A stretch of 64,000 nt of DNA, from assembly GCA_018812265.1 (NCBI GenBank), contig JAHJDG010000009.1, positions 5,042 through 69,041 on the forward strand. The letters are read 5' to 3'. Under the pieces are notes generated by a model. It was given only the letters and a program-made list of their open reading frames with translations, did not search any database and was not told where the DNA came from. The first letter of the stretch is position 1. The number at the start of each line of letters is the position of its first letter. Made by a program: the position numbers and the translations under genes. Shown here in pieces: positions 18,365-59,802 of the stretch. This stretch comes from a bacterium (GTDB taxonomy: Bacteria > Electryoneota > RPQS01).

Positions 18365-19804
18365 ATGTTTGTGCTCGCAGTGGTCATCCTACTGACTCTG
18401 GCGGGATCAGCTCCAGCCCAGACCTTCAATGATTTTCTGGCCCGGCTGTACTCGCTGCCCGAATCCGAACGGCCCGCTATCGTGGACAGTTTCATGGCGG
18501 TTGTGCAGGGCTTCCCCTACCTTGAAAACGATACCGTCGCGCACTTCATCTATCGCGGCACGGCGCAGCAAGTGACCGTCCCCGGCGATGCCAATAATTG
18601 GAATCCGAATTCGTATCCGATGAATACGGTGTCGGGAACGGATTTCTGGTATCATTCCCGCGGGTTCGAGTCGGACGCGCGGCTGGACTACAAGTTCGTT
18701 TTAAACGGATCCACGTGGATTCTCGATCCTCGGAATCCGTACACGGTGGTGGGAGGATACGGTCCCAATTCGGAACTGCGGATGCCGGACTATGCGATGC
18801 CGCCCGAGATCGAGTACCGGCCGGAGATCCCGCATGGAGCTTTGCGGGACACGATGTTCTACAGCACGAATCTGGGGAATACGCGGAGAGTGCGAGTATA
18901 CACTCCCCCGGACTACAACGGATCGGAAGACTCATTCGGAATAATCCTGTTCCACGACGGGCTGGAGTATATCGCGCTGGCGAGCGCGAACAACGTGCTG
19001 GACTATCTGATTTGGCAACAGCGAATCGCACCGGTGATCGCGGTGTTCGTTCCGCCGGTCAATCGAACCGGAGAGTACGCGGGCAATCTCAAGGAAGAAT
19101 TCGGCGCTTTCATCGTGGACGAACTCATGCCGTGGGTGGACGAGGAGTTCCGGACTTTGTCGAATCTCTCTCAGCGGGCGACCTTGGGCGCATCGAACGG
19201 CGGGAATATCGCGCTGTGGCTGGGGCTTCATCACGGGGAGGTATTCGGGAGGATTGCCGCGCAGTCGAGCAACGTGGAGACCGAGATTTCGAGCGCGATT
19301 CAGAGCGGGCCCCAACTGCCGCTTGAGTTCTATCTCGATCTGGGAACCTATGATATTCCGGTGCTGATTCCACTCGTGCGGAACTTCGTTTCGATTCTCG
19401 ATGGGCGCGGGTACACGTACGAATACCACGAGTATCACGAGGGTCACAGTTGGGGGAATTGGCGAGCGCACATGGACAATGCTCTCGAGAGGTTCTTTCC
19501 GTTTCAGACGGGCACGACACCAAGCCCGCCGGCGAGCGCGCCCGGCCGAATCGAACTCGCCGTGTATCCGAATCCGTTTAACGCGGTGGCGGTGGTGCAG
19601 TTCCAGCTTCCGGTCTCCGGGCGTGTCCAGCTTGTGCTGTACAATGTGCGAGGGCAGGCGGTGAGGACGGTGACGGAAGGAGTGTTTTCGTCCGGATCAC
19701 ATCAAGTGGCCGTGGATTCCGCGGATCTTTCTACAGGGATTTACTTCCTGCGGCTTTTTGGTGCGCAGGGAAATGCGGTGCAGAAGTTGTTGCTGGTGAA
19801 GTAG
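18365..19804 (+). CDS. Secreted esterase (Esterase-D/enterochelin-esterase-like fold with an N-terminal CBM48/Ig-like domain) carrying a T9SS CTD.
   Basis: Start reset to the MFVLAVVILLTLAGSAPAQ signal peptide after AAGGAGGG. Esterase core ...GASNGGNIALWLGLHH... with the nucleophile in G-A-S-N-G. CTD YPNPFNAVAVVQF...GIYFLRLF...KLLLVK. Confidence 0.8.
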   Translation: MFVLAVVILLTLAGSAPAQTFNDFLARLYSLPESERPAIVDSFMAVVQGFPYLENDTVAHFIYRGTAQQVTVPGDANNWNPNSYPMNTVSGTDFWYHSRGFESDARLDYKFVLNGSTWILDPRNPYTVVGGYGPNSELRMPDYAMPPEIEYRPEIPHGALRDTMFYSTNLGNTRRVRVYTPPDYNGSEDSFGIILFHDGLEYIALASANNVLDYLIWQQRIAPVIAVFVPPVNRTGEYAGNLKEEFGAFIVDELMPWVDEEFRTLSNLSQRATLGASNGGNIALWLGLHHGEVFGRIAAQSSNVETEISSAIQSGPQLPLEFYLDLGTYDIPVLIPLVRNFVSILDGRGYTYEYHEYHEGHSWGNWRAHMDNALERFFPFQTGTTPSPPASAPGRIELAVYPNPFNAVAVVQFQLPVSGRVQLVLYNVRGQAVRTVTEGVFSSGSHQVAVDSADLSTGIYFLRLFGAQGNAVQKLLLVK

Positions 19805-19899
19805 CATCGGAAAGATTCCGGCGGGGTAACGCACACAAGCATCTCTGTTCGGACTATTCCTCTGTGTTTAACCCGCTCGGCGAGTAGGGATTTTAGGAA
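19805..19899 (+). promoter_or_regulatory. Copy 1 (5' portion, ~90 nt) of a leader element shared by three consecutive intergenic regions.
   Basis: GATTCCGGCGGGGTAACGC...GGACTATTCC..TTTAACCCGCTCGGCGAGTAGGGATTTTAGG aligns with the first ~95 nt of the copies at 22363 and 24208. Confidence 0.6.
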
Positions 19900-22362
19900 A
19901 TGAACATGAAGAACCTGTCTATCTTCCTGAATAAGACTATTCTACGATGCGTGCTGACGGTGGTGGTTACGGTTGTCAGCGTGTTGCCAGCGCTCGCGGG
20001 ATATGAGTTCTTGGGGAATGCGAAATCGGCGGAGACTATTCCGGGCGGAATTGCCGTGCGCTGCGACGGCGGACATACGCTGCGAATGGTTTTCGTCACA
20101 GATCACGTGCTGCGAATCACGCTCGAAAGAACGGGAGACGACGAAACGTTGCTTGACTATGCGCTGACGGATATTCCGGCGCGAGCGATTGTTCCGGTCG
20201 TTGAGGATCGCGACAGTTTGTGGATTTTACAAACGGACGAGGCGGAAGTCCACGTGAACAAGTTTCCCTGCGCGGTTGTTGTACTGGACAAGAGCGGGAA
20301 GACGGTGTGCGCGGACGAACCGGGTCTCGGCATCGGCTGGGACGGAAATGAGATCCGATGCTGGAAGACGATTGAGGCAAATGAACGATTCTTTGGATTG
20401 GGTTTGAAAGTCGGAGACGTCAACAAGCGCGGCCGCGAATGGGTGATGTGGAACAGCGACGTGCCGGCCTACGGATGGCAGAGCGATCCACTCTACGAGA
20501 GCATTCCGTTTTTTGTTGGAATCCGCGACAGCAATGCCTACGGAATCTATTTCAACAACAGCTATCGAACGCGGTTCAACATGGGGGCGGGGAATCTGCG
20601 GTATTACTCGTTCGCGGCCGAAGGTGGAGCGTTGGACTATTTCGTGATCCTCGGTCCGGAGGTTGGTAAGGTCGTGGAACGATATTCAGAACTCACGGGC
20701 CGGATGCCGATGCCGCCGCTATGGGCTTTGGGCTATCAGCAATGCCGGTGGAGCTACTACCCCGACAGCGAAGTATTGTCGCTGGCGCTGACGTTCCGGG
20801 AACGGCGAATTCCCTGCGATGCGATCTATCTCGACATTCACTACATGAACGACTACCGAGTGTTCACCTGGCATCCGAACAGATTTTCCGATCCGCGCGG
20901 TTTGTGTCAGTCGCTGCGTCGCGATGGATTCCGAATCGTGACGATCATTGATCCGGGAGTGAAGGCGGACACGAATTATCAGATTGCGCGCGAAGGTCTG
21001 GAGGGTAATCACTTCGTGCGGTATCCCGACGATCAAACATACGTCGGAGAAGTGTGGCCGGGGAAATCATACTTTCCGGATTTCAGCCGTCGAGAAACGC
21101 GAAAGTGGTGGGGAGAGTACGTGGGAGAATGGCTCGGTTATGGGGTGTCGGGAATCTGGAACGACATGAACGAGCCGGCCGTGTGGGGGCAGGCGTTCCC
21201 GACCGAAACGATCTTCAACGACGACGGCCGCATCGCATCACACAAGAAACATCACAATCTCTACGGACTGCTGATGGCACGCGCAACCTATGAAGGCGCA
21301 CGGCAATCCCAGCCGAACCAGCGTCCGTTTATCCTGACACGCGCGGGTTTTGCGGGAGTGCAGCGTTACTCCGCGGCTTGGACGGGAGACAACATTGCAG
21401 ACTGGGATCATCTGGCGCTGGGGATTCGCATGATGCAGGGAATGAGTCTGTCGGGAGTCCCGTTCGTGGGAACCGACGTGGGCGGATTCATCGGATCGCC
21501 GTCGGGCGAACTCTTCACGCGCTGGATTCAGGTGGGTTCCCTCTCCCCACTTCTCCGCACGCACTCCGAGTATCATACGGACTTGCAGGAACCGTGGTCA
21601 TATGGACGCGATCTGGAGGACATCAACCGCCGCTACATCGAGTTTCGCTATCGTCTTCTCCCCTATCTCTATTCGCTGTTCCGGGAAACGAACCGGGACG
21701 GAACACCGATCTGGCGGCCGCTCTTCTGGAACGACCAAGGAGACGTGCGAACGTTCGACGGATGGTTTCAACATCAGTTTTTCGTGGGCGAGCGGCTGCT
21801 GGCGGTTCCGGTCATTCGCGAGGGTGAAGTGTACCAGAAAGTCTATCTGCCAGAGGGGAAATGGCTGGACTGGAGTACGCATGAAGCGTATGAAGGACCG
21901 AGGGAGATCATTGTAGACGCTCCGCTCGACCGGTTGCCGTTGTTTCTGCGAGAAGGAGCGATCATTCCGATGCGGGACGTGGTGCAATACACGGGAGAGC
22001 GACCGATCTCGACGCTCTCACTGACGGTGTTTCCTTCCAATGTGCTGACTGAGTTCGAGTTGTACGAAGACGACGGAGAGACGTTCGCGTACCTGAAGGG
22101 TGGGTATCGGATCACGAACTATGCGTGTCAAAATGCGACTGATTCTGTAGTCATTTCTAAGAATATCTCTCACGACGGGTATGCTCCTGCGAAACGTGGG
22201 ACAGAAATTCTTCTTCAAGTACAATACCTACCACCTGCAGAGGTTCTACTCGATGGGCGGCCGCTGCCGGCGACATGCAGGAAGGAATACGACGCGGAGA
22301 GCCATGTGTTGACGCTTCGCTTGCAGGAAGGCGTGGTGTGGGAGAGGATTGTCGTGCGGTGA
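19900..22362 (+). CDS. Glycoside hydrolase family 31 alpha-glucosidase.
   Basis: 820 aa with a signal peptide. GH31 catalytic region GIWNDMNEPAVW (nucleophile Asp) and WTGDN. No Por CTD. Confidence 0.85.
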   Translation: MNMKNLSIFLNKTILRCVLTVVVTVVSVLPALAGYEFLGNAKSAETIPGGIAVRCDGGHTLRMVFVTDHVLRITLERTGDDETLLDYALTDIPARAIVPVVEDRDSLWILQTDEAEVHVNKFPCAVVVLDKSGKTVCADEPGLGIGWDGNEIRCWKTIEANERFFGLGLKVGDVNKRGREWVMWNSDVPAYGWQSDPLYESIPFFVGIRDSNAYGIYFNNSYRTRFNMGAGNLRYYSFAAEGGALDYFVILGPEVGKVVERYSELTGRMPMPPLWALGYQQCRWSYYPDSEVLSLALTFRERRIPCDAIYLDIHYMNDYRVFTWHPNRFSDPRGLCQSLRRDGFRIVTIIDPGVKADTNYQIAREGLEGNHFVRYPDDQTYVGEVWPGKSYFPDFSRRETRKWWGEYVGEWLGYGVSGIWNDMNEPAVWGQAFPTETIFNDDGRIASHKKHHNLYGLLMARATYEGARQSQPNQRPFILTRAGFAGVQRYSAAWTGDNIADWDHLALGIRMMQGMSLSGVPFVGTDVGGFIGSPSGELFTRWIQVGSLSPLLRTHSEYHTDLQEPWSYGRDLEDINRRYIEFRYRLLPYLYSLFRETNRDGTPIWRPLFWNDQGDVRTFDGWFQHQFFVGERLLAVPVIREGEVYQKVYLPEGKWLDWSTHEAYEGPREIIVDAPLDRLPLFLREGAIIPMRDVVQYTGERPISTLSLTVFPSNVLTEFELYEDDGETFAYLKGGYRITNYACQNATDSVVISKNISHDGYAPAKRGTEILLQVQYLPPAEVLLDGRPLPATCRKEYDAESHVLTLRLQEGVVWERIVVR

Positions 22363-22600: not shown

Positions 22601-24202
<1,602 letters not shown>

Positions 24203-24387: not shown

Positions 24388-27300
24388 ATGATGAGAAATG
24401 TTGCGTTGACTATGCTGATTCTGGGTGTTGCGATCGGATCTGTTGCCGCTCCGGTGCACACGACGTACATCTGGCACATGGAGCAGCCGATTTACTGGCC
24501 CGCCGCTTCCACGTGGCACGCGGGCTATCAGACGGCGTGGGAGTCCATCGTGCTGAAGGACGGCGGCGCGCCCCACCCGGAAAACGACGTGCGGGCGATT
24601 TTCTCGGTAGCCGACCGGGTGGCCGCCTATCAGTACCGACCGCGCGATGCGATACAGGCGATGACGGGAGCGGACGCGGGAGCGCAGGTGACGTACACTG
24701 GCGGATTGATCCGCAACGTGGCCAGTCTGGGAGCGGCCGGGCAGCTTGGATACACCTCCAACTGGAATCAACCGTTCATTACGGGACGCGGGTGGAATAC
24801 GAGCGGCGGCAGACCGCGACTGGAGATGACCATTATTCCCTATCACCACGCGCTGGCACCACTGGTGGATCGCGCCGTGTTGAAAAAGGAAATCCAGATC
24901 TATCAGCACGTGTATCCGCAAGTTTGGGGAAGCACGCCGCCCGCTTCGGTGGGATTCTTCCCGCCGGAGCTGGCCTCCAGCGAGCGAATCATTCCCGTGC
25001 TTGCCGAGTGCGGGATTGGTTGGTGTTTTGTCCCTTCCAATCATCTGTCACGCGCCTGCTCGAACTTTCCGTTGGTGTTGGGCACGGGCGGCGAAAACTG
25101 CGATCCGCCCAACCGGGCCGATCAGATCAATCCCTCGTCCGATCACTGGTTTTCGATGACGATCAGCCGGGGCTGCACGCCGACGGACGCCGTGCCGTTT
25201 TCGTTTCAACTCCACTGGGCGGAGCAGGTTGATCCGCAAACCGGAACTCCGGCACGGGTAATCGTCGTACCGGTGGCGATGGCGATGAGCTGGCAGGATG
25301 GATATCAAGTATACGGCGTGGGCGACGTCAACACGATTGCGCCGTGGAACGATCCGGCCCGTCCGATGCTGGTGGCCCTCGGACATGACGGCGACAACGC
25401 GTTCGGGGGCGGATACTCCTACTACATGGAGAGCGTGCCGGGCTTCACTTCGCAAGCGGTGGCACAGGGGTATGAGCCGACGACCGTTCCGGAGTATCTG
25501 GCCGATCATCCGGTGCCGACTTCGGACCTCGCGCACGTTGAAGACGGAGCCTGGATAAACGCCGACGGGGATTTCGGCAGTCCGGATTTCATCAACTGGA
25601 ACTGGCCGCCCTACAACGCGAGCGGACAATTCGACATTCCCAACGGCTGGGCGCTCGATATCCGAAACTGGGCGGTGATCACGGCGGCCACGAATCGCGT
25701 GGTGACGGCGGAAGCGGCGGCGGGCGGAAGCTCGATTGCGGCGATCCAGAATCCGACCACGACCTCGCCGGCGGCGATTGATCTGGCGTGGCACTTTCTG
25801 CTTGGATCGCTGAATTCGGGATATATGTATTACGGCTCGGCACTCGACATGGAGATGAAGCCGACGGTGGCCTGCAACATCGCGACGGACTGGGCGGATC
25901 AAGTTCTGCCGGGCGCGGGCGACCCGATTCCGCCGACGATCTGGATTTTGCAGCAGCATCCGCACAATCCGGGCGGAATCGGATTCGGATCGCTGTGGGG
26001 CTATCAGCAGACGGTGCAGCCGCGCGAGTTCTACGTATGGACGTTCATCTACGACGTTTCAGGGGTCTCTTCCGCAACGTTTTACTATCGTCTTGATGCG
26101 GACGGAATGAATCCGCTGTCATCCACGCAGAACGAGACGTTTGCGGGAGGCGGTGAAGTTTCCACGTGGCGGTCGAGGGAGATGAACCGTCGGGCATTCC
26201 CCGCCGGGAACGTATATAATGATCCGTCTATTGTGTTCGGGGAGATGCCCGACTACATCGCGGAGCAGTTCACCTACTATGTGAATGATGCCGAGATCGT
26301 GGACTCGGGCGGAGTTCTCGTAGACTACTACGTAGAAGCGATGGATTCGCTGGGGAACATCGCCCGCTCCGACATCTATCATACCTACGTGGATTCGGGG
26401 TCGGGAGGTTCGCCCGGCAATCGCGTGTGGTGGACACCCGAAGAGCCGGAAGGCGGGGAGAACGTCACGATCTATTATGATGCGGAGGCGGGGCCGCTGC
26501 CGTCGGGGACGAATCCAGTGTACATTCACATCGGGCACTCGGGATGGCAGGGGATTCTCAATCCCGATCCGCAGATGACCTACGACACCGGCGAAGAGGC
26601 TTGGCGATACACGTACTCCATTCCCTTAACGGCGACCGCGGTGGATTTCGTTTTCCAAGACGGCCTTGGTCATTGGGACAACAATAACGGCGCCGACTGG
26701 CACATCCCAACCACACCGGGCGGTTCCGGTTTCGTGATGGACGGCAGTCGCGATGGTGCCTCCGTGGTTGTGGCGGAGGCAGGCGGGATTACGCTCTGGG
26801 CAGGTTGGGACGGACGGGAATTGTACGTGGCTACGTCGCGCGTTCAGGGCACGGCCTACGATCAATTCATCTTCGTGGCTTCGCCGCCGGGAGCGATGAG
26901 ACCAGCACCGTGGGCGAAGTCAGGCCAAGTGGCGACATGGGCGGCCTATCTGGCGGAGGAAGGGAGCAACGGGTACAACGCTTGGTATGACACACAGGGG
27001 AGCGCTGTCAAAGCCGCCGGGAGCGTGCTGGAGGGAGCAGTGGACCTGACCGGAGAATTGGGGACGGTTCCGGGAGAGGTATGGCTGTGTTGCGGTAGAT
27101 ATCAGACGGCGGATGGAGGGATTTTGGCGGCTCAGGCACCGGCGGCGGTGGCTCCGGGCGGTCACATTGAGGCATCCGAATGGGTGCGATTGGTTCTGCA
27201 GCCGGACTCCCTGACAATTTCGGTGGTGGGACCGACAACCATTGAACTCCGCTGGTCTGCCGTCGTTGGTGCTACGGAATATGCCGTATTTCGGGCGGAT

Positions 27301-27405
27301 AGCCTATCCGGTAGTTTTGTTGAGGTTGGCCGAGTGTCATCCTTGTCATTTCAGGACTCGCCTGCCTCAGCAAGTGGAAAATATCAAGTAAGAGCTTGTT
27401 ATTGA
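24388..27405 (+). CDS. GH57/GH119-clan glycoside hydrolase-like enzyme (putative alpha-glucan-active) with an internal CBM25-like starch-binding domain and a C-terminal Fn3-like domain.
   Basis: GH57-like regions: YIWHMEQPIYW (region I-like), FFPPELASSE (WxxE-like nucleophile region) and LGHDGDNAFGGG (HDDGEKFG-like). CBM25-like ...VTIYYD...FVFQDGLGHWDNNNGADW. Signal peptide. Confidence 0.6.
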   Translation: MMRNVALTMLILGVAIGSVAAPVHTTYIWHMEQPIYWPAASTWHAGYQTAWESIVLKDGGAPHPENDVRAIFSVADRVAAYQYRPRDAIQAMTGADAGAQVTYTGGLIRNVASLGAAGQLGYTSNWNQPFITGRGWNTSGGRPRLEMTIIPYHHALAPLVDRAVLKKEIQIYQHVYPQVWGSTPPASVGFFPPELASSERIIPVLAECGIGWCFVPSNHLSRACSNFPLVLGTGGENCDPPNRADQINPSSDHWFSMTISRGCTPTDAVPFSFQLHWAEQVDPQTGTPARVIVVPVAMAMSWQDGYQVYGVGDVNTIAPWNDPARPMLVALGHDGDNAFGGGYSYYMESVPGFTSQAVAQGYEPTTVPEYLADHPVPTSDLAHVEDGAWINADGDFGSPDFINWNWPPYNASGQFDIPNGWALDIRNWAVITAATNRVVTAEAAAGGSSIAAIQNPTTTSPAAIDLAWHFLLGSLNSGYMYYGSALDMEMKPTVACNIATDWADQVLPGAGDPIPPTIWILQQHPHNPGGIGFGSLWGYQQTVQPREFYVWTFIYDVSGVSSATFYYRLDADGMNPLSSTQNETFAGGGEVSTWRSREMNRRAFPAGNVYNDPSIVFGEMPDYIAEQFTYYVNDAEIVDSGGVLVDYYVEAMDSLGNIARSDIYHTYVDSGSGGSPGNRVWWTPEEPEGGENVTIYYDAEAGPLPSGTNPVYIHIGHSGWQGILNPDPQMTYDTGEEAWRYTYSIPLTATAVDFVFQDGLGHWDNNNGADWHIPTTPGGSGFVMDGSRDGASVVVAEAGGITLWAGWDGRELYVATSRVQGTAYDQFIFVASPPGAMRPAPWAKSGQVATWAAYLAEEGSNGYNAWYDTQGSAVKAAGSVLEGAVDLTGELGTVPGEVWLCCGRYQTADGGILAAQAPAAVAPGGHIEASEWVRLVLQPDSLTISVVGPTTIELRWSAVVGATEYAVFRADSLSGSFVEVGRVSSLSFQDSPASASGKYQVRACY

Positions 27406-49252: not shown

Positions 49253-49276
49253 CTTGTCCAAATCCTCCCGAAACCG

Positions 49277-50095
49277 ATGTTGAAGAAGACTGTCCTGCTT
49301 ATCGTGATGCTGGCTTTCGTCGTCATCACGCTCTATCCGATTCTCACCGTGGTCACGGTTTCGCTGCGACCCGGCGACCGACTGCTCTCGACGTCACTCT
49401 CCATCATTCCCGAAGATGCGACGATCGAAAGCTACATCGCGTTGTTCCGCGACAAGCCGTTCGCTCGCTGGATGTTCAACAGCACGATCGTGGCCCTCGC
49501 CGTTACGATTCTCGGAACCTCCCTTGCTTCTACGGCGGGCTACGCCTTTTCTCGTTTTCGATTTCCCGGTCATCGGGCGGGTATGATGATGCTGCTCATT
49601 ACACAGATGTTCCCGGCGACGATGCTGCTTTTACCGCTCTTCGTGATGCTGGCCAAGTTGCATCTCATCAACTCGTATCTGGGTCTCATTGTGATCTACT
49701 CGGCGACGGCTTTGCCGTTCACCGTGTGGCAGATGAAGGGCTACTACGACACGATCCCGCGCGAACTCGAAGAGGCCGCGCTGATGGACGGTGCCGGCCG
49801 CTGGCGAGTTTTCTATTCCATCATCCTCCCCCTGGCGGCACCGGCTCTGGTCATTACCGCTCTGTTTTCTTTTCTCACCGCATGGAGCGAATACGTTGTG
49901 GCGGCGCAGGTGCTTCTGACCGAGGATCTGTACACGCTCCCCGTCGGGCTCAAGCAGTTTCAGTCGAGCATGACCACCGAGTGGGGATTGTACTCGGCCG
50001 GTTCGATTATCATCAGCATTCCGGTGGTGGCTCTCTTTCTCTACCTCTCCCGGTGGCTGGTATCGGGTCTGACTCTCGGCAGCGTGAAGGGATAG
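49277..50095 (+). CDS. Sugar ABC transporter permease (MalG/UgpE-like).
   Basis: EAA motif EAALMDGAGRWRVF. Six TM helices. Confidence 0.85.
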   Translation: MLKKTVLLIVMLAFVVITLYPILTVVTVSLRPGDRLLSTSLSIIPEDATIESYIALFRDKPFARWMFNSTIVALAVTILGTSLASTAGYAFSRFRFPGHRAGMMMLLITQMFPATMLLLPLFVMLAKLHLINSYLGLIVIYSATALPFTVWQMKGYYDTIPRELEEAALMDGAGRWRVFYSIILPLAAPALVITALFSFLTAWSEYVVAAQVLLTEDLYTLPVGLKQFQSSMTTEWGLYSAGSIIISIPVVALFLYLSRWLVSGLTLGSVKG

Positions 50096-50197
50096 GAATT
50101 TTTCGAGTGTGCGATTTTGCCTTGATTTCGGTGAGATAGGGTCTTATCATAAAAAGGTGAGTTTCCATTGCGAGGACAACCATCCAAGGATAGACGT

Positions 50198-53100
50198 ATG
50201 AATAGGTTGCTGAACACGTTGGCAGTGGCTCTCACGGTATTCCTGGCCGTGAAAGCCTCCTTTGCATTCGAGTGGCGTCTCAACGACTGGGTCATTAAGG
50301 ATGAAATCGGTGAGATCGAGGCGGGAGATTTCGATCTGTGTAACGGATTTTTCCGCGAAGACTCCGATCGAACCTACCTCAAGATCACGACCCGCAGTCC
50401 ACTCACTCAAGACGTTGACGTATGGGTCAGAACTACGGACAAACTGGGTCAGCAACTTTCGTTGCGGCGAGACGCGCCCTCGACGCGGGCGACTGTCAAC
50501 GCCTTCCGGGGCGTCTTTGAAATCGAGTGGATTCGACCGAGTGATTGGCAGGGTACGGCAACACTGTCCATTCAAACCGTTCGCAGCGGGACGATGGAGA
50601 TCGTTGATGAAGCCGCTGTGGACATGAACCCGCGTTCCTCGCTCGACAATGAGACGGGCAACTGCGCGTTTGTCCATCACGGGAATCAGGGACTCACTTA
50701 TACGGACGTTTTCCGGGGGAGCGGCGGAAGCCCGAACAACGGATTCGATGAGATTTTGGAATTGCACCAGAATCTCGCTACGCCGGGCAACTTCCACATG
50801 AGCGGAACATTGATTTCGGCGGCCGAGTGGTATGATCCCAGTTTCAATCAATGGCTGCGCGACGGAATCAGTCAAGGCTGGGCAGCGATGCTGACCTCGG
50901 TCTATGCTCAACACATCATGCCGTTTGTTCAAGACAACATGAACAACTGGGCGGTCAGCACCGAACAGGATTTGATCTCGACGATCTACGGATACGACGC
51001 CCGCGTCGCGTGGATTCCCGAGCGCGTGTGGCTGGCGAATGGAGTATATCCCGACGCCGGCATCGTGGATCCGTGGCTGGGCGACAACTGGACTCAGCAC
51101 GGTGTGGACGCAGTCATTCTCGATGACTGGCCGCACGTCAGCGGCAACAGCGACCGCAAGATTCACTGGATGAACAACGGTTCCGGAATCACACTGCGCG
51201 TCATTCCGATTGACGGCGAATTCACCGGCAACTGCCATTACAATCCGGGTGCGGCCATTGCGCATATTCAGGGAACGGGACGATACGGCATCGTGGTCTA
51301 CGGAACCGACTGGGAAGCTGCCGCGGAAATGGCCGACTTTTCCTGCCCCGATTGTCTCGAGAATTATTCGCAGGTCGTCACGTGGGTCCATGACAACTAC
51401 CCTGCCGTTGGCGCCTGGAAACTCGATGCCGCGCTTGCCAATTCCGACTTCAACGGTTGGGGAATCAACGTCGGTAACGGAACGTACGGACTCATCGGCG
51501 GCACCGACGGCTATGGCGGCAGCAACAACAGTTGGTACACGCACTGGGCCGGCACGGCATCGCACTCCGATTTCCATAATCCGGCGTGGAACTACGGCCA
51601 TGCCTGGTGGCAGACGTATCTGAAGGTTATGGGTTCGCCGAGCAACAATCTGTCGGAAACGGCCTGGTACGTGATGATGACCAACCTCCACGAGACCGGC
51701 TGGCACGATTACATGGGCGGGCCGATCAGCGGCTGGCAGCACCGCTATTCGAGTCACATCAAGAACGCCAACGTCTATGCCGAAGCCGCGCACTGGGCGG
51801 CGGGAGAGTACGCGATTCCGGTGAACGCGTACTTCGCCGATCCCGACAGCGACGGTGTTTCGGAACTGATGATCCACAACGATCGCGTGATGGCCGTCTT
51901 CGAGCCGACCGGCGGACGGGCCCAGTGGATTTTCGCCAAAACGCCGTCAAGCGACAACTACTCGATCGTCGGCAGCTGCAACACCTACTGGGCGGAGACC
52001 GAAGGCGACTACGACGAGTCGGGATCCAACAATCATCAGGCCGCCTTTGCCGAGGTGAGCCCGCACTACCGAAATGACACCTATGACATGTTCGTGGAGG
52101 AACTCACCGACACGACGGCGAAGATTCGGCTGGTTCACAATGAAGTAACTAAACGGATCTCCGTGAAGCTCGGCAATCCCTACTTCAAAGCCGAGTACGA
52201 AGTCGGATCTCAAACCTGCTATCTGCGGCACGGTTTCTCGCCCGATCTGCTCGATCTTATCTGGAGCGCGGACATGTATCGCATTTGGCCGCCCGACGCG
52301 GCGTACATGGGATTACGCAATCCGAACAGCGGCGCTACCGGAGCATGCATCCTCGCCAACGGCGGCGCGAATCATCAATTGGAATTCAGCGGAACGTTGC
52401 TGCGAGGAGACGAGTTGCGTGGGTATGACCAATTCGCGTTTCTGCTCTACACCGGACCGACCTCGGCTCCCGACGGATCGGGACGGATTGCCGAACTCGA
52501 GACCCTGAAGACGATGAACCTCGATCGCTACGGACCGAGACTCGACGCGCAGGCCATCTTCCTCAATGCGAGTACGGTGGAAGTATCGTTCAATGAGTCC
52601 GTGGAGCAAACCAGCGCCCAGAATATCTCACACTGGACCCTGCAAGGATTCTCCCACACCTATTCGGTAACGGCGGCGGTCCGGCAATCCGATTGGCGAC
52701 GCGTCCGGCTTACGATCAACCCGAGTCTTATCGGCGGCGATGCGGGTCAGATTGCGGCAAGCGACGTCTATGATCTGAATGGCAACGTTGTTGATCCAAA
52801 TTACGATACCGCGTCACTCATCGTTCCCACCGGACTCACGCCTCACACCATCGTCATTGACGGTGTCAAGGACTTCGATCGTGCCAACGAATGCCTGTTC
52901 GCAGGAACGGATACGCTGTTCCTGACGTGGGACATGTCCGCCTTGTACGTCGGCTATTTTCCCAAGGATCTTTCGACGGGCGATTTCTTCATTCACATTG
53001 ACGTCAACCAGCAGACCGGGATGGGAGCTCCCACCGGCAGTTGGGGACGGGAGAGTTTCGCCAATCCATTCCGCATCGAGTATCAACTCGCCATCGAAGG

Positions 53101-53656
53101 CGGCGTCGGCGGGATTCAATTGAATCGCTGGACGGGCAGCGCGTGGGAGTATCCGGGTCCGGGAACTCCACCCGCCACCAGCTACAACGGATGGTCGGGC
53201 AATCCATTTACCGAGGTACGCATCCCGTGGGACGCCATCGGCAATCCGTCCGGGATCGCACTGGCGGTCAGCATCACGCAAGAGGACAATCTCATTACCG
53301 ATCGGGTATTCCCGCCCTCCAATCCGACGGGCAACTCGATTACCATTTCCCAGATGTATCGTTTGTACCAACCGTACATCTCCGGCAACATGCCGTTGTC
53401 GGGCGTTCGGCCGAAGTACATTCTCAGCGGTGACCTCGGTACACCGGCCAATCTCGTGGCCTATCCGATCAGCGGACACGTGGGACTCAGGTGGTCGGCG
53501 GTTGTGGGAGCGGTTACCTATGTGATTCATCGCGCGGAATCCGCAGCCGGTCCCTTCAACGTGTTGGATGAAGTCTCGGCCACACAGTATGAGGACAACA
53601 GCGTAGCGGGAGGCCTGCGGTACTTCTATCGAGTGACCGCCAAATCGGGTATTTGA
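50198..53656 (+). CDS. Large secreted GH57/GH119-clan glycoside-hydrolase-like protein with a C-terminal Fn3-like domain.
   Basis: Start reset to MNRLLNTLAVALTVFLAVKASFA (ATG at 50198; the ORF track begins at an upstream TTG). RVAWIPERVW (GH57 region-III-like with Glu). C-terminal ...LRWSAVVGAVTYVIHRAESAAGPF...YFYRVTAKSGI, homologous to the C-terminus of 24388..27405. Confidence 0.55.
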   Translation: MNRLLNTLAVALTVFLAVKASFAFEWRLNDWVIKDEIGEIEAGDFDLCNGFFREDSDRTYLKITTRSPLTQDVDVWVRTTDKLGQQLSLRRDAPSTRATVNAFRGVFEIEWIRPSDWQGTATLSIQTVRSGTMEIVDEAAVDMNPRSSLDNETGNCAFVHHGNQGLTYTDVFRGSGGSPNNGFDEILELHQNLATPGNFHMSGTLISAAEWYDPSFNQWLRDGISQGWAAMLTSVYAQHIMPFVQDNMNNWAVSTEQDLISTIYGYDARVAWIPERVWLANGVYPDAGIVDPWLGDNWTQHGVDAVILDDWPHVSGNSDRKIHWMNNGSGITLRVIPIDGEFTGNCHYNPGAAIAHIQGTGRYGIVVYGTDWEAAAEMADFSCPDCLENYSQVVTWVHDNYPAVGAWKLDAALANSDFNGWGINVGNGTYGLIGGTDGYGGSNNSWYTHWAGTASHSDFHNPAWNYGHAWWQTYLKVMGSPSNNLSETAWYVMMTNLHETGWHDYMGGPISGWQHRYSSHIKNANVYAEAAHWAAGEYAIPVNAYFADPDSDGVSELMIHNDRVMAVFEPTGGRAQWIFAKTPSSDNYSIVGSCNTYWAETEGDYDESGSNNHQAAFAEVSPHYRNDTYDMFVEELTDTTAKIRLVHNEVTKRISVKLGNPYFKAEYEVGSQTCYLRHGFSPDLLDLIWSADMYRIWPPDAAYMGLRNPNSGATGACILANGGANHQLEFSGTLLRGDELRGYDQFAFLLYTGPTSAPDGSGRIAELETLKTMNLDRYGPRLDAQAIFLNASTVEVSFNESVEQTSAQNISHWTLQGFSHTYSVTAAVRQSDWRRVRLTINPSLIGGDAGQIAASDVYDLNGNVVDPNYDTASLIVPTGLTPHTIVIDGVKDFDRANECLFAGTDTLFLTWDMSALYVGYFPKDLSTGDFFIHIDVNQQTGMGAPTGSWGRESFANPFRIEYQLAIEGGVGGIQLNRWTGSAWEYPGPGTPPATSYNGWSGNPFTEVRIPWDAIGNPSGIALAVSITQEDNLITDRVFPPSNPTGNSITISQMYRLYQPYISGNMPLSGVRPKYILSGDLGTPANLVAYPISGHVGLRWSAVVGAVTYVIHRAESAAGPFNVLDEVSATQYEDNSVAGGLRYFYRVTAKSGI

Positions 53657-53737: not shown

Positions 53738-55603
53738 ATGAACAGAGCAATTCTTGTATGTGTGCTCGCCCTGCTTGTCGCAGGATATGCTGGGGCGGTT
53801 CCGTCCTTCACGCCCGTCGTGGACGGAATCAAGGACGTCGGCTGGGGCAGCGTACCGGATCACTCAACGACCACATTGCGCGAACCGGTTACGTTCAATC
53901 TCGACAGTGGCTTTTATGTCACGGACGACAGCGAGTTCATCTATTTCGGCTTCTGGGCCGACAACGATCCCTGGACCGATGCGATGAACCCGCATATCCA
54001 CATTCTGATGGACATCGGCAGCACGGCCGACGGCGGAACGTTTGCCGCGTGGGGAGCAAACAACGTTCTTTACGCCCACGCTTTCAAGCCGGAATATGAC
54101 ATCGTCACGCAGTGGGGTGACGGAGCGGCACCCTATACCAACGACATTCAGTTTACCGGATTGAATCGTTGGGTTACCGGAAGCTGGAATCAGATCATGG
54201 AGCTGACGATTGACGATGGCGGCGGCAGTCAATGGACGGAAATCGCCGTCCGCAAGGCGGATATCGGATCACCGGCCAACGGCGTGGTATTGAACCTCTC
54301 CATGTGGCTGCGTCCCGCGTGGAACAAGGCAGGTGGCAATTGCTGTCTGCCCGCGGATGAAGACTTCCCCAGCGATTGGGCAAACACGGCCGGCACATTC
54401 GATCAGCAGTTCGCCTATACGCTTCAGGCAGCGATCTCCGACACCGACCCGCCGGGGATTGACCACGTTCATCAGATTGACCGCACCGGCATCGAGATCG
54501 TGTTCGATGAGCCGATGGACACGACAACGTTTCTGGCCGGCAATTTCACTCCTACCGGTTGGACATTCACGGGCTTTCGCTATAAGACGTCCAACACCGT
54601 AGGAATTTCCGCGGCACCTCCGGGTTTCCAGATGGGCACGGTATATTCCGTCGTTCTGTCTTCCGCCATCGAGGATGTCGCCGGCAATTCCATGGATCCG
54701 GCCGACGACTCGACCTCGTGGACGGGTGTCGGCTATGCGGACGTCACCTTCCTATGCATAGATGCCTCTGCGACCCACGACACGATTCTGTTCAAGGGAT
54801 CGTTCAACTTCTACCACGAGTACGATGCTTTCTGGTCGGGTGGCAGCCATCTCATGTATGACGACGGCACTCACGGAGACGTAGCCACCGGTGATCATAC
54901 CTTCACTCGCATTTGGCCCATGGTTCCCAACGGAGGAACACCCAACTTCGAGTGGGGAGTTCGCGACGAGTTCGACAACTGGCTCGTGATCGGCCCGAAT
55001 CCCAGCTTCTCGTTGCCCGACACCAACGATATCACGGTGAGCTACACGATTCCCGACGTAACCCACAACCCGGTAGACGTCACCTTCACGGTGGACATGC
55101 AGTTCATTCCCGCGACGATTGACAGCATGATGCTCGCCGGAAGCTTCACGGATTGGGGAACCAATCCCGTGACGATGACGAATAACCTCGACGGCACCTA
55201 TTCCCGGACAGTAAACTTCCCGGCCGGATCGCAGCGAACGCATTACTTCAAGTTCATCCGTATGGAAGGCGGGAATCAAGACTGGGAAGGGATCAGCGAC
55301 CGCGAATTCGACCTCGACGACAGCCAGCCCACTCTGAATTTGGGACTGCTGTTCTTCAACAATTGGATTCCCGCGCCCTATGACGTGACCGCATACCCGG
55401 CTACCGGCGGCGTGGACATCCGTTGGAATGATAATTACCAGCGGGTCGAGTTCGAAGTCTACGGATCGAGTAACCTCTACTCGATTATCGAGCCAATCAA
55501 TCTGCTGGGCATCGTTCCGGCCGGTACGGGAAATCATTTCCTGGACACCGATGTGACGGCTACCAGCAAATTCTATCAAGTTCGCACGGTGTACACACCG
55601 TAG
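53738..55603 (+). CDS. Secreted surface protein with an SbsA-type Ig-like (Big_5) domain, a CBM20-like glucan-binding module and a C-terminal Fn3-like domain.
   Basis: Signal peptide MNRAILVCVLALLVAGYAGA. DPPGIDHVHQIDRTGIEIVFDEPMDTTTF (Big_5-like). VDVTFTVDMQFIPATIDSMMLAGSFTDWG (CBM20-like). C-terminal Fn3-like. Confidence 0.55.
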   Translation: MNRAILVCVLALLVAGYAGAVPSFTPVVDGIKDVGWGSVPDHSTTTLREPVTFNLDSGFYVTDDSEFIYFGFWADNDPWTDAMNPHIHILMDIGSTADGGTFAAWGANNVLYAHAFKPEYDIVTQWGDGAAPYTNDIQFTGLNRWVTGSWNQIMELTIDDGGGSQWTEIAVRKADIGSPANGVVLNLSMWLRPAWNKAGGNCCLPADEDFPSDWANTAGTFDQQFAYTLQAAISDTDPPGIDHVHQIDRTGIEIVFDEPMDTTTFLAGNFTPTGWTFTGFRYKTSNTVGISAAPPGFQMGTVYSVVLSSAIEDVAGNSMDPADDSTSWTGVGYADVTFLCIDASATHDTILFKGSFNFYHEYDAFWSGGSHLMYDDGTHGDVATGDHTFTRIWPMVPNGGTPNFEWGVRDEFDNWLVIGPNPSFSLPDTNDITVSYTIPDVTHNPVDVTFTVDMQFIPATIDSMMLAGSFTDWGTNPVTMTNNLDGTYSRTVNFPAGSQRTHYFKFIRMEGGNQDWEGISDREFDLDDSQPTLNLGLLFFNNWIPAPYDVTAYPATGGVDIRWNDNYQRVEFEVYGSSNLYSIIEPINLLGIVPAGTGNHFLDTDVTATSKFYQVRTVYTP

Positions 55604-55627
55604 TCCGCCATCAACCGTCCCGCCAGC

Positions 55628-55659: not shown

Positions 55660-55689
55660 CTCTATAGGAAGTAAGCATGTGCCACTCGT

Positions 55690-58407
55690 TCATCTCAACA
55701 GGACCATCTTACGCGTCAGGCATTCCCCTTCCGCTTGCAGCCGACAGAAATAAACTCCACTTGGCCAGCCTCGGGCGTCAATCGCACGAGTGTACCGCCC
55801 CGCAGCAAGAGACTCTTGAAAAAGAGTTGCTACCAATCGGCCATTCAGATCAAACACTCTTAGTGTCGCATGCGCCGCCTGCCCGAGCGTAAATGTGATG
55901 TTCGTAGATGCATTGAACGGATTTGGGACGTTCTGATCGAGGGCAAACATTTTCGGAATGACCGCCCGATCTTCGGCCACCGGCAGTAGTCCCGTTCCAT
56001 GCAAGACCAAGTTTGAAGCCGTGCCGTCCCAGGAAAAAACCGTGTGCAGGACGTACGATTCTTCGGACCAGTACGCTACGGAATCCCCGGTCAGAAGCTC
56101 AGCAAGACTCGCGACGAACAGCGCCGGTATTCCACTGACTTCCACCTCCTCCGGTCTATGCGCAATCCTGTGAAACTGAACGTGCATCCATCGTGTAGAA
56201 GGTGCACCGGGATACCCATCGTGAGTTGTCGTCAGTTCCACCGCAATACTATCAGTGGTCACGTATCCGGCGAAGTTCAGCGTATTGTACAAACCTTGTT
56301 CCGGAGCATCCGGTGCCATGCCGTCATCTTCGTACATTGCATTTGAACTTGCCGGCGTGCCGGCATCCGGATAATAGTGCAGCTCCAGTGTATCGCCTGC
56401 GTAGTCAGACGTTGATTCGATCTCGGGAATCATCGGGACGAAGCTTCCCCCGCGGACGAAAACCGGTATCTTCGACAACCGGGCATCTACCGAATAATGA
56501 CTTTCGCCCACGAATGTCTCGTCCGTCCAGAAGTCCACCCAGACTCCCTCAGGCAAAAGTACGTCGCGAGTTCGTTGACCCGCTTCAAGAGCAGGAGCAA
56601 TCAGAAACGACGGACCCCATAAGTACTCGTCATCGAGCCGGGCAAACGCTTCATCGTTGAACACCATGCACAGCGGTCTGGCCAGCGGCATTCCGGAAAG
56701 CGAGTTTTCCCAAGCCAGCGTGTAATTATAGGGAAGCAGACGGTAGCGAAGATTGATGTAGAACGTCACGATCTCGCGCGTGGCCGGATCGTAGTAGATC
56801 GGCTCGGGGGGGACGCCCACTCCGTGCGCTCGCATGACCGGTGCGAACACTCCCAGCTGCATTCCACGAATGTACTGCTCGCTGTCGCGCGGTCCGCAGT
56901 CGAAGCCGCTGATGTCGAAACCCGTATACGCAACGCCGGACATCCCCATGCTCAGTATAATGGGAAGCTGCGCCTGAAGTCCCGCGAAAGTTCTCTGCAC
57001 GTCTCCCGACCAGGGGAACGTGCCGTAGCGCTGCATTCCCGCGTATCCGGATCGTATGAGGTTGAATAGTCTCTGGTCAGGATAGAATTCCCGATAGCGA
57101 TTATAGAGCAACTTGGCCCAGCGGAGCGAATAGGTATTGTGAACTCGTTCCGCCGGACCGTCATGATGCACCATCTGCGACGGATGGGCCTCCGGTTCGC
57201 CCAGATCGCACCACCATCCTCCAACGCCCTCGGCAATGCGGTCGGCATAGAACGTCCACCACCAGTCGCGCGCGGTAGGCAAAGTGACGTCCAGAAGTCC
57301 GGCCGGTCCGGCCCAGAAATTCGGTATCACCACCGGAATGCCGGTTGAGTCTGGTGTCAGATAACGGTTTTGATATGCATGCGCGTAGTTGGAAGACGTC
57401 TGGATAATGTATGGCTCGGTGATGAGGATGGTTTTCACTCCCAGCGAGTTGAAATCGGCCATCATCCCGATAGGATTCGGCCACTGCGAGCGGTCCCAAT
57501 CGAAGTCTCCCATCTGCCCCCATCCGAACCAATACAAATCGAGAATGATTGCATCCAGCGGAATACCTTGATCGCGAAACGCCTGAACCACGCTTCGGGC
57601 TTCGCTCTCACTGGTGTATCCGAAGCGTGACTGCAAATAGCCGAGCGCCCATCGCGGCGGCATCGGCGGCCGGCCGGTGAGCAGGGTGTAACGCTGCAGA
57701 AGCTCTGGTCCACTTGCGCCTATTATGATGAAGTAGGATAGTTCTCCGCCGGATACACCGTACTCGAACACGGTTTGCTCGGCTGCGCCAACGTCGAAGC
57801 GTCCGGGATACGGATTATCGAAATAAACTCCATATCCATTCGACGACCATAGAAACGGAACGGTGATGTTGAGATTGGGCTCGCCGACACCGTAGCAGTA
57901 GTGCGCCGCATTATACGAGTCGAGCGACTGACCACGCCGGTCTATGGAGACGGCTCGCTCGCCTCCGCCATACAAGTGTTCACTCGGCTGAAGCCGGAAC
58001 CTGACTCCGCGTTCCTCTCCACTCCAAAAAAATCCGTCCTCATCCGCCAGCACCAACCGGTTTGCATTCAGAAAGTGAAACCGAACCGGGAACTTGGAAA
58101 TCTCGATTTCCATTCCAGTCATTTGCATCGTCAGCGTCGAGTCATTCTCCGACAACTGCCAGAACGCAGGCTCGGGTGATAGGCAGACGACATGCGAACT
58201 ATCGGGCCATGACTGCCCATCCGGCGAGAGCGTTATTCGAACGATCCCGTCCGCGAAGGGTCGCACCGCAACGACCGAGCCGCCGGCGAAAATCCGAAGC
58301 TCACTGTCCTGCAGCACATGCGAGCTGTAGTTCCCGAGAAGTTCCGCTGCAACCGCTCGCCATAGACCCAGCACGAAAATCAGATAGATGAGAATCCTCA
58401 CGATCAC
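55690..58407 (-). CDS. Glycoside hydrolase family 31 alpha-glucosidase with a T9SS CTD.
   Basis: Signal peptide. GH31 core ...WWCDLGEPE... (Asp nucleophile region). CTD VPNPFNASTNITFTL...GVYFCRL...KMVLLR. Confidence 0.8.
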   Translation of the reverse strand: MIVRILIYLIFVLGLWRAVAAELLGNYSSHVLQDSELRIFAGGSVVAVRPFADGIVRITLSPDGQSWPDSSHVVCLSPEPAFWQLSENDSTLTMQMTGMEIEISKFPVRFHFLNANRLVLADEDGFFWSGEERGVRFRLQPSEHLYGGGERAVSIDRRGQSLDSYNAAHYCYGVGEPNLNITVPFLWSSNGYGVYFDNPYPGRFDVGAAEQTVFEYGVSGGELSYFIIIGASGPELLQRYTLLTGRPPMPPRWALGYLQSRFGYTSESEARSVVQAFRDQGIPLDAIILDLYWFGWGQMGDFDWDRSQWPNPIGMMADFNSLGVKTILITEPYIIQTSSNYAHAYQNRYLTPDSTGIPVVIPNFWAGPAGLLDVTLPTARDWWWTFYADRIAEGVGGWWCDLGEPEAHPSQMVHHDGPAERVHNTYSLRWAKLLYNRYREFYPDQRLFNLIRSGYAGMQRYGTFPWSGDVQRTFAGLQAQLPIILSMGMSGVAYTGFDISGFDCGPRDSEQYIRGMQLGVFAPVMRAHGVGVPPEPIYYDPATREIVTFYINLRYRLLPYNYTLAWENSLSGMPLARPLCMVFNDEAFARLDDEYLWGPSFLIAPALEAGQRTRDVLLPEGVWVDFWTDETFVGESHYSVDARLSKIPVFVRGGSFVPMIPEIESTSDYAGDTLELHYYPDAGTPASSNAMYEDDGMAPDAPEQGLYNTLNFAGYVTTDSIAVELTTTHDGYPGAPSTRWMHVQFHRIAHRPEEVEVSGIPALFVASLAELLTGDSVAYWSEESYVLHTVFSWDGTASNLVLHGTGLLPVAEDRAVIPKMFALDQNVPNPFNASTNITFTLGQAAHATLRVFDLNGRLVATLFQESLAAGRYTRAIDARGWPSGVYFCRLQAEGECLTRKMVLLR

Positions 58408-58437
58408 CTCGGAGTGATTACATCTTGAATTCTCGCA

Positions 58438-59802
58438 TCAACGCGATAGCACCCGATAACCCCAAGCACCGAGCTCAAGAGGAGCATTCTCGGAAACATT
58501 CACCCGTTCACCCGTAAAGGCGTCCAAGAACTCACCCGTGAGTCTGCTCTTCACTTCAACCAGCTTGGGCTCCGCCGAAAGGTTCAGCACGACAAGCACA
58601 TCTTGGTCATCCTTTTCGCGCACAAATGCAGAGACTGTCTCAGGCAGATTAGTCTCGCAGCGCACTATCGCGCCGCCGCTCGATCCGTTCCAGAGAGCGC
58701 GATTCTCCCGTTTCAGGCGAAGAAGGATGCGATAAACGTCCCTCAGATGATGTTCCCGCCAGTCAATCGGATCGCGCTCAAAGAATTCGAGCTGCTTGTC
58801 CAGACCGGCTTCCTGCCCGCTATAGATCAAAGGAATTCCCGGTACGGTGAGTGTCAACACGGCGAACGCTTCGGCGGCGTCGCCCAACCGTTCGAATACC
58901 GTACCATTCCACGAGTTCTCGTCGTGATTATCGGTGAACCGCAACCGATGGGCGTCCGGCGGATAGGCGTTGCGCTCCCGAATGAATAGGCTGTCGAGAG
59001 CAAGAACCGACCGCTTGCCGTGCGCGATTCCACTCATCAGCCAGTGCAAGTTCCAGGAATAAGTGACGTCGAAACCCTTTTCGTGTGCGGCGGGAGATTC
59101 ATCCTCGGCGAGCATGAAGACGGGCTTGATCTCATGAAGGGCTTCTATGGCGTCGGCCCAGAAGTCCCATGGTACCATGCCGGCTACGTCACAGCGGAAA
59201 CCGTCTATGTCCGTTTCCCTGATCCAGAATCGCATGGCTTCAATCATATAATCGCGCAGGCCTTCTCTTTCGTAGTTCAGATCAATCACGTCATGCCAGT
59301 CGGGAACGGGCGGAACGAAATCGCCCTTTTCATTCTGTGTGAACCAGTCCGGATGTTCTTCTACCAGCGGATTGTCCCAGGCGGCGTGGTTGGCCACCCA
59401 ATCAATCAAGACGTGCATTCCAAGATCGTGAGCACTGCGAACGAGACTCTTGAACTCGTCCATCGTACCGAACTCGGGATTCACAGCCAAGTAATCGCGT
59501 ACACTATAATAGCTTCCGAGAGTGCCCTTACGGTTCTGCTCGCCGATGGGATGAATCGGCATGAACCACAGCACACGCACGCCCAATTCTTTGAGGCGAG
59601 GCAGATGTTCGCGAAATTCGGCAAACGTTCCCGCCGGAGTGAATTGCCGAACGTTGACCTCATAGATGCAAACGTTGCGCGACCACTCCGGTGGATTCCT
59701 GTGCTCGGACCGGCCTTCTCTATCTGCGGAATGTGCGAGGTTCCACGGCAGGAGAAGAGTCAACCATAATCCGAGCACAATCCATGAAGCAGGTCGTGGC
59801 AT
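58438..59802 (-). CDS. GH13 alpha-amylase-family enzyme (periplasmic or secreted).
   Basis: Start set at MPRPASWIVLGLWLTLLLPWNLAHSA (ATG 59802). Region I DWVANHAA, region II GFRCDVAGM, region III MLAED, region IV FTDNHDE. Confidence 0.8.
   Translation of the reverse strand: MPRPASWIVLGLWLTLLLPWNLAHSADREGRSEHRNPPEWSRNVCIYEVNVRQFTPAGTFAEFREHLPRLKELGVRVLWFMPIHPIGEQNRKGTLGSYYSVRDYLAVNPEFGTMDEFKSLVRSAHDLGMHVLIDWVANHAAWDNPLVEEHPDWFTQNEKGDFVPPVPDWHDVIDLNYEREGLRDYMIEAMRFWIRETDIDGFRCDVAGMVPWDFWADAIEALHEIKPVFMLAEDESPAAHEKGFDVTYSWNLHWLMSGIAHGKRSVLALDSLFIRERNAYPPDAHRLRFTDNHDENSWNGTVFERLGDAAEAFAVLTLTVPGIPLIYSGQEAGLDKQLEFFERDPIDWREHHLRDVYRILLRLKRENRALWNGSSGGAIVRCETNLPETVSAFVREKDDQDVLVVLNLSAEPKLVEVKSRLTGEFLDAFTGERVNVSENAPLELGAWGYRVLSR

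Follow-up and report, generated by a model that had tools for sequence, protein, structure and literature searches.

A conserved gene triad of TonB-dependent receptor, large protein of no assigned family and PorV-like barrel in an alpha-glucan utilisation locus without SusD

We analysed a 64,000-nucleotide stretch of bacterial DNA (the window; contig JAHJDG010000009.1 of assembly GCA_018812265.1, positions 5,042 to 69,041, forward strand), which very probably contains the alpha-glucan (starch/glycogen) utilisation locus of an uncultured member of the Fibrobacteres-Chlorobi-Bacteroidetes (FCB) superphylum. By scanning every long open reading frame (ORF) against Pfam and NCBIfam, we found a densely packed locus of 19 genes scanned for families at about 18.2 to 60.0 kb of the window, which largely bears out the 41-kb alpha-glucan locus described in a first-pass annotation of the same DNA. 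The main gene run lies on the plus strand from 18215 to 55603, and a glycoside hydrolase family 31 (GH31) gene and a GH13 gene converge on it from the minus strand. Within this run, three consecutive plus-strand genes form what we call the triad: a TonB-dependent receptor (27673..30438, ORF from 27658) assigned by Pfam a CarboxypepD_reg N-terminal domain, a plug and a barrel; a protein of 1159-1161 aa with a signal peptide (30497..33976, ORF from 30491), here named BIG, that matches no family; and an outer-membrane barrel of the PorV/PorQ family (33973..35001). Several genes of the locus overlap, and an ATGA joins the stop codon of BIG to the start of the PorV-like gene.

The receptor has the layout of a SusC-type transporter, with a CarboxypepD_reg domain (PF13620/PF13715), a plug (PF07715) and a large barrel (PF00593/PF25183). 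When compared to the SusC/RagA family model TIGR04056, it scored 63.9 bits, where the cutoff is 368.25, and the match was confined to residues 42-242, which comprise the N-terminal domain and the plug. Similarly, a profile of 13 such receptors searched against PDB matched SusC/RagA only at positions 8-252, and no better than it matched CirA or FepA. Judged by these profiles, the receptor is not a member of the SusC/RagA family and is SusC-like in its N-terminal architecture only; the label 'SusC-like' given to it at first pass thus holds for the architecture and fails for the family. Both genes adjoining the receptor, BIG and a GH57-like protein, gave no match to the SusD/RagB Pfam models at E <= 0.01, consistent with the earlier claim that no SusD lies beside it. 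SusD is an all-alpha lipoprotein with a TPR-like fold. BIG is neither SusD nor SusD-like, because it has no SusD Pfam match, its model is almost wholly beta, and it carries a putative C-terminal domain (CTD) of T9SS (type IX secretion system) type instead of a lipobox.

No match to BIG was found in Pfam or NCBIfam, and a sequence-profile search against PDB was also empty. Its relatives number in the thousands: when 1.84 billion cluster representatives were searched with a profile, 1,574 clusters (50% identity) passed E <= 1e-30 and 5,190 passed E <= 1e-10, the looser threshold being one that may admit matches to the CTD or to repeats only. Every source names these relatives 'hypothetical', and none has a Pfam domain. 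The AlphaFold2 (AF2) model of BIG is all-beta, with a galactose-mutarotase-like supersandwich, a carbohydrate-binding-type fold, in the N-terminal part (about aa 30-770), which also holds an internal FN3-like domain and acidic motifs of the DxDxDG type. Most of the invariant acidic residues sit in loops of this type, which suggests Ca2+ binding. The first-pass annotation had described an 1161-aa 'Ca-repeat' T9SS protein at this position; its placement after the receptor and its divergent CTD stand, and the repeats are replaced by the DxDxDG-type motifs, with no repeat family matched. A Foldseek comparison of the model with PDB gave no global match, merely generic strings of Ig/FN3 domains (TM 0.06-0.10). 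From its sequence, BIG is not any known carbohydrate-active enzyme (CAZyme). Between the glycan classes of loci described below, residues 30-770 and the CTD are conserved (0.37-0.53 identity), with a beta region at residues 770-1050 that is hypervariable both inside and between the classes (0.17-0.29 identity).

The C-terminal 100 aa of BIG align with T9SS type A CTDs (YPNP, GxY and a basic-hydrophobic end) and are modelled as a beta-sandwich at residues 1063-1159. They match no type A CTD hidden Markov model (HMM), although the motifs align around a conserved insertion of about 15 aa ('GRGERR') that is found in every glycan class and is missing from the other CTDs of the locus. The C-terminus also weakly resembles PorZ, with 18.6 bits on NF052228 (cutoff 260) over a C-terminal stretch only and a Foldseek probability of 0.97 for 5m11. 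Type A CTD models (TIGR04183 / PF18962) matched the C-termini of four other proteins of the locus, namely an esterase, a CBM20 protein, a large GH13 and the minus-strand GH31. Together with the divergent BIG, recognised by alignment, this makes five Por-type CTDs in the locus instead of the six first counted. Just beyond the locus edge (14223-15842, minus strand), a DUF5122 beta-propeller protein also bears a T9SS CTD and may be the 'sixth' of that count.

The barrel passes the PorV/PorQ family model NF033709 with 210.3 bits (cutoff 90), in agreement with the PorV-like barrel previously noted beside the 1161-aa protein, and is homologous to PorV of Flavobacterium johnsoniae (6h3i_F, E = 2.6e-10). 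It scores below the equivalog cutoffs for PorV (NF033710, 84.4 bits, cutoff 250), PorQ (NF033711, 90.9 bits, cutoff 220) and PorV2 (NF052325, 79.5 bits, cutoff 325), and on these scores is best described as a separate subfamily of PorV/PorQ. The BamG model gave 20.6 bits (cutoff 250).

When we inspected the neighbourhoods of seven diverse BIG relatives, all had the order receptor (CarboxypepD_reg type), BIG, PorV-like gene, usually followed by a CBM20 protein with a CTD and accompanied by amylases and by ATP-binding cassette (ABC) or SSF transporters. A scan for BIG with one genome per GTDB species found at least 593 relatives, and the best 80, pooled with the loci around individual relatives, made up a set of 87 loci. 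Here, a receptor homologue lies directly upstream of BIG in all 77 loci where the sequence reached, and a PorV-like gene is adjacent in 78 of 81; five loci have the alternative order receptor, PorV-like gene, BIG. In the reverse direction, starting from the receptor profile on metagenome contigs, the next gene is BIG in 62 of 62 cases, and the PorV-like gene is present in 38 of 38 where the contig is long enough. Chance co-location of the triad is ruled out by synteny in both directions. The linkage is also tighter than that of any enzyme or carbohydrate-binding module (CBM) protein in the related loci, the CBM20 protein being matched outside its CTD in 41 of 59, including that of Ignavibacterium album. 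A SurA-like peptidyl-prolyl isomerase (Rotamase + SurA_N), which may be a chaperone for assembly of the outer-membrane unit, often adjoins the triad elsewhere (L008, L009, L024, L029, L079, L085 and others) and is not present in the window.

Going by record titles, genomes with the triad belong to Calditrichota, KSB1, WOR-3, Stahlbacteria, Neomarinimicrobiota, Fidelibacterota, Ignavibacteria/Melioribacteraceae, Fermentibacteria and Rhodothermales/Rubricoccaceae, or are metagenome-assembled genomes (MAGs) under the label Gemmatimonadetes or Bacteroidota; a few further labels on MAGs ('Alphaproteobacteria', for example) can probably not be trusted. The comparison of synteny in related MAGs that had been suggested at first pass thus found receptor, BIG and PorV-like gene kept together over many FCB lineages and several glycan classes. 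Among cultured organisms, I. album JCM 16511 has a free-standing cassette of receptor, BIG, PorV-like gene and CBM20+CTD gene (IALB_0486-0489, around IALB_0487). This cassette (CP003418.1, about 531.4-540.3 kb) has a gene for an extracytoplasmic function (ECF) sigma factor upstream and offers a tractable test system. In the full-text literature, where subscription titles are poorly covered, neither the triad nor IALB_0486-0489 proved to have been described; this covers the genome papers on Caldithrix and Melioribacter as well as a review from 2026 on glycoside transporters. The 2013 genome paper of Melioribacter roseus called the starch-operon genes Mros0761-0759 'SusC, SusD and SusE' (PMC3534657). 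These may be a triad labelled by position, given that triads are present in Melioribacteraceae MAGs (L062, L072, L079).

The triad is not restricted to alpha-glucan loci, signatures of which were found in 45 of the 79 genome-scan loci with BIG recovered. It also occurs with LacI, GH94, a GH144-like 'glycoamylase' family protein with CBM30 and CTD, and GH2/GH3, in what we take to be a beta-1,2-glucan locus; in a mannan-type locus with CTD-bearing CE2, CBM9 and GH26 proteins, GH130, an epimerase and a sulfatase; and in a dextran-type locus with two GH66 dextranases. One Calditrichota MAG (JAADIP01) has two triads, one in a GH66 locus (L026) and one in a GH94/GH144-like locus (L027), which are 44/44/45% identical to each other (receptor/BIG/barrel) and 63-79% identical to triads of the same class elsewhere. 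The GH66 locus also contains a solute-binding protein, a histidine kinase and a sigma-54 regulator. In the same way, identities are 56/60/53% when mannan-class triads from Melioribacteraceae are aligned with those from Marinimicrobia, compared to 43/40/39% for mannan versus alpha-glucan triads inside Melioribacteraceae. The three proteins diverge jointly by locus class and not by taxon, and each triad therefore owns its barrel and is inherited as a unit.

The remaining genes of the main run, all on the plus strand, largely match the functions first assigned to them, with the exception that the earlier listing was not in gene order. Upstream of the triad are four genes. The first encodes a CBM48 and esterase (PF00756) protein with a T9SS type A CTD (18365..19804; the ORF opens at a TTG at 18215, with the ATG at 18365 the probable start), and has orthologues in related alpha-glucan loci. 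It is followed by a GH31 protein of the alpha-glucosidase type with a signal peptide and no CTD (19900..22362; PF01055, 406 bits), which is probably periplasmic, and by an SSF sodium:solute symporter (22601..24202; PF00474, 326 bits), one of two inner-membrane import routes. The fourth gene, next to the receptor, encodes a secreted GH57-like protein of 1005 aa (24388..27405; PF03065, 34.8 bits). It has a CBM25/53-like module, weakly matched, and ends in an FN3-like domain instead of a CTD.

Directly downstream of the triad is a CBM20-type starch-binding protein with a T9SS CTD (35068..36576; Pfam/NCBIfam), which is predicted to bind glycans at the surface and whose gene comes fourth in the conserved alpha-glucan cassette. 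Its earlier description as a triple-CBM20 protein holds for two CBM20 stretches, the third being a weak CBM48-like stretch. Next to it, the large GH13 protein of the alpha-amylase type (36697..40959, ORF from 36607; NCBI gene call of 1420 aa) has a PKD domain, a T9SS CTD and two Ig_N_CWD1 domains. The latter stand where the first-pass annotation had placed two CBM25 modules, the only CBM25/53-like signal being the weak one on the 1005-aa protein. The run continues with an amylo-alpha-1,6-glucosidase-like (GDE_C) protein with a Glucodextran_C domain and a lipoprotein-like N-terminus (...ITQSC) (40956..43745; Pfam and N-terminus), a MalK-like ABC ATPase with ABC_tran, OB_MalK and TOBE_2 domains (43772..44842; Pfam), a GH57 and CBM20 enzyme (44826..47141, ORF from 44688; PF03065, 160.1 bits; NCBI gene call of 771 aa), and a solute-binding lipoprotein with two permeases resembling MalEFG (47104..50095; Pfam and N-terminus). 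With solute-binding protein, two permeases and an ATPase with the MalK OB/TOBE tail, the MalEFGK-type importer is complete and, alongside the SSF symporter, provides the two import routes that had been proposed.

The last two genes of the run encode a secreted GH57-like protein of 1162 aa (50168..53656; PF03065, 21.9 bits; PDB 1k1w, E = 1.4e-6) and a secreted Big_5 protein of 621 aa (53738..55603; Pfam), both ending in an FN3-like domain. All three GH57-clan proteins claimed earlier reach the PF03065 gathering score of 21.2 bits, the matches of 34.8 and 21.9 bits spanning part of the model only. The FN3-like end domain (...LRWSAVVGA.EY...) is common to the proteins at 24388, 50168 and 53738 and replaces the T9SS CTD in each of them; the tail of the 1162-aa protein matches PDB 3mpc, an 'Fn3-like protein'. 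We considered whether the two weak GH57-like proteins are paralogues and rejected this, given that their common part is the C-terminal FN3-like domain only. On the minus strand, convergent with the main run, are the GH31 protein with a T9SS CTD (55690..58407; Pfam/NCBIfam) and a GH13 protein with no evident signal peptide (58438..60006; Pfam), which is probably cytoplasmic. The esterase, GH31, symporter, receptor, GDE-like lipoprotein and convergent GH31 and GH13 assignments of the first-pass annotation were thus all matched by Pfam/NCBIfam.

G+C content is even throughout the region at 55-60%, tRNA and Rfam scans of the window gave no match, and the nearest relatives of the locus genes are in MAGs labelled Calditrichaeota and KSB1. 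Window positions 1-13700 hold, nearly all on the minus strand, type IV pilus genes (PilB-, PilT- and PilC-like), two sigma-54 response regulators, a PAS histidine kinase and YchF; we judged the pilus and sigma-54 regulator genes, on the opposite strand, unrelated to the locus. Directly past the convergent GH13 gene (60042-63776, minus strand) are a response regulator with a PAS-like tail, a PAS histidine kinase and a FapA-like protein. No LacI, hybrid two-component system (HTCS) or ECF regulator was found within the locus, in contrast to many related loci. Under the strict PULDB definition of a polysaccharide utilisation locus (PUL), a susC/susD pair beside CAZyme genes, the CAZyme cluster is present and the susC/susD pair is absent. 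The architecture is nevertheless PUL-like and not that of the canonical Bacteroidetes Sus, as the first-pass annotation had stated, with a large T9SS protein and a PorV-like barrel in SusD's place.

Based on established family functions and on signal and lipobox features, the genes of the locus outline a pathway in which binding and cleavage of the polymer at the cell surface would fall to four T9SS-exported CTD proteins: the large GH13, the protein with CBM20, the esterase with CBM48, and one of the GH31 enzymes. The TonB-dependent receptor would then carry oligosaccharides over the outer membrane, GH31 and the GDE-like lipoprotein would trim them in the periplasm, the MalEFGK-type ABC system and the SSF symporter would import the products, and cytoplasmic GH57 and the small GH13 would complete the breakdown. 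For the triad itself, the reading that we favour, with a probability of roughly 0.6, is that BIG is tethered by its own barrel as the surface partner of the receptor, filling the SusD role with unrelated proteins and by another anchoring principle. BIG would be exported by the T9SS, and its modified CTD would stay uncleaved and docked in the cognate PorV-like barrel, as PorZ is in PorQ. Such docking would set the conserved beta domains and the hypervariable domain of BIG over or beside the receptor, where they could capture oligosaccharides and pass them on. There are precedents for the parts of this arrangement: cognate PorV-like barrels have been proposed to shield CTDs from cleavage (PMC12704123, PMC10202324), type B cargo genes cluster with cognate PorP/SprF barrels (PMC10202324), and BamG, a FadL-like barrel, is a platform for surface proteins in the Bacteroidota machinery for beta-barrel assembly (BAM complex) (PMC12578637).

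Several points weigh against BIG as a barrel-tethered partner of the receptor. The fold matches of BIG are to non-catalytic domains that are found also in proteins without a part in glycan binding (such as the YidC periplasmic domain and amine oxidase), so the match is not specific to glycans and BIG is only a candidate glycan binder. The idea that residues 770-1050 track the substrate class was rejected, with an identity of 0.29 within the alpha-glucan class and 0.26 between classes. The synteny counts rest on the best 80 relatives per scan, which are the closer family members. Furthermore, we infer T9SS export, retention of the CTD, glycan binding and substrate induction, and likewise the contacts of BIG with barrel and receptor.

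The alternative that survives best is that the receptor imports alone, like the SusD-less TonB-dependent glycan transporters of Proteobacteria, with BIG and the barrel forming a co-regulated pair of cargo and anchor, a surface binder or adhesin, that is uncoupled from the receptor. SusD-independent TonB-dependent receptors for carbohydrates are established in Xanthomonas and aquatic bacteria (PMC1790865), and the locus already holds a separate binding protein with CBM20. However, an uncoupled pair is hard to reconcile with an adjacency that is invariant in both directions in a nearly fixed gene order, or with three genes that diverge in lockstep over glycan classes and phyla and are more tightly linked than the CBM20 protein. 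The N-terminal 770 aa of BIG, being common to all substrates, are also more in keeping with a conserved partner for another protein than with a binder specific to one substrate, and we consider this alternative unlikely.

It is also conceivable that every CTD-bearing enzyme and binding protein of the locus depends on the barrel, which would be their locus-specific T9SS shuttle or platform for attachment, with BIG as a PorZ-like accessory or scaffold, such that the triad organises a surface 'utilisome' around the receptor and is not a lid. CTD proteins are the commonest neighbours of the triad (18 of 68 flanking ORFs, in addition to the five in the locus of the window), PorV binds cargo CTDs generally (PMC12704123), and there is the weak resemblance of BIG to PorZ. 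This resemblance falls far below the PorZ cutoff (18.6 versus 260 bits) and comes without the PorZ architecture, just one further CTD protein is encoded in the I. album cassette, and the family-specific insertion in the CTD of BIG, missing from the other CTDs of the locus, points to a private pairing of BIG with its barrel. We therefore regard a general platform as a quite improbable explanation. That BIG is instead a new surface CAZyme (hydrolase, lyase or epimerase-like) and not a binding or lid protein seems very improbable indeed, given that it matches no known catalytic family, that most of its invariant acidic residues are in the presumptive Ca2+-binding loops, and that a single catalytic specificity is hard to square with the same conserved N-terminal region in alpha-1,4-glucan, alpha-1,6-glucan, beta-glucan and mannan loci.

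BIG as a barrel-held receptor partner can be set beside several known systems. As in the Bacteroides Sus and SusCD systems, a surface amylase and starch-binding proteins are co-localised with a TonB-dependent importer that has a CarboxypepD_reg-type N-terminus, with periplasmic trimming and inner-membrane import, an accessory surface-protein gene directly after the receptor gene, and reuse of the module for many glycans. Unlike in those systems, no SusD lies beside the receptor, which itself falls short of the SusC/RagA model, the partner is an all-beta protein of about 1160 aa, the surface proteins are T9SS cargo with CTDs instead of lipoproteins, and a third gene, for the PorV-like barrel, is obligatory. 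The PorZ-PorQ and PorU-PorV pairs of Porphyromonas gingivalis likewise combine a protein exported by the T9SS, as BIG would be, with a barrel of the PorV/PorQ family, and the barrel holds the exported protein, its CTD retained, at the surface (PMC12704123, PMC10202324), as we propose for BIG; the CTD of BIG also comes nearest to that of PorZ. The triad differs from them in that it is not a core secretion component and that a genome can have several triads, every one of them linked to its own receptor and glycan locus. Moreover, BIG is not PorZ, and the barrel stays under the equivalog cutoffs for PorV, PorQ and PorV2.

With type B CTD cargo and PorP/SprF-like barrels, such as SprB-SprF, the triad shares a surface cargo gene clustered with its own barrel-anchor gene and a CTD thought to be uncleaved (PMC10202324), whereas the CTD of BIG is type-A-like with an insertion, its barrel is of the PorV/PorQ family, and the unit includes a TonB-dependent receptor. 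The carbohydrate utilisation loci containing TonB-dependent receptors (CUT loci) of Xanthomonas, Caulobacter and other Proteobacteria also combine such a receptor with CAZymes and inner-membrane transporters without SusD (PMC1790865), but have no T9SS cargo, PorV-like barrel or BIG homologue. BamG-BamH of the Bacteroidota BAM complex differs in its function, which is outer-membrane protein assembly, in BamH being a lipoprotein, and in the low score of our barrel on the BamG model. We regard the locus as a TonB-dependent glycan-import locus with accessory machinery that is new in its composition and, on the favoured reading, would be new in its anchoring.

SusC/SusD pairs are the markers by which polysaccharide utilisation loci are found and counted, so that a phylum in which SusD is missing is taken to have no such loci. 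We tentatively suggest, holding it slightly more doubtful than even, that the triad is a widespread and previously unrecognised class of outer-membrane glycan-import complex, a SusCD counterpart of FCB phyla other than Bacteroidia, in which a partner installed by the T9SS and held by an uncleaved, marked CTD would have diversified for starch, dextran, beta-glucan and mannan. If this is true, BIG (at least 1,574 clusters at 50% identity), found beside receptor and barrel, would give a searchable marker of glycan uptake for abundant uncultured lineages of sediments, marine waters and digesters. It would also represent a second way in which a TonB-dependent transporter can be given a surface 'lid' or binding partner, and PorV-like barrels together with retained CTDs would have a role in nutrient uptake as well as in the secretion machinery.

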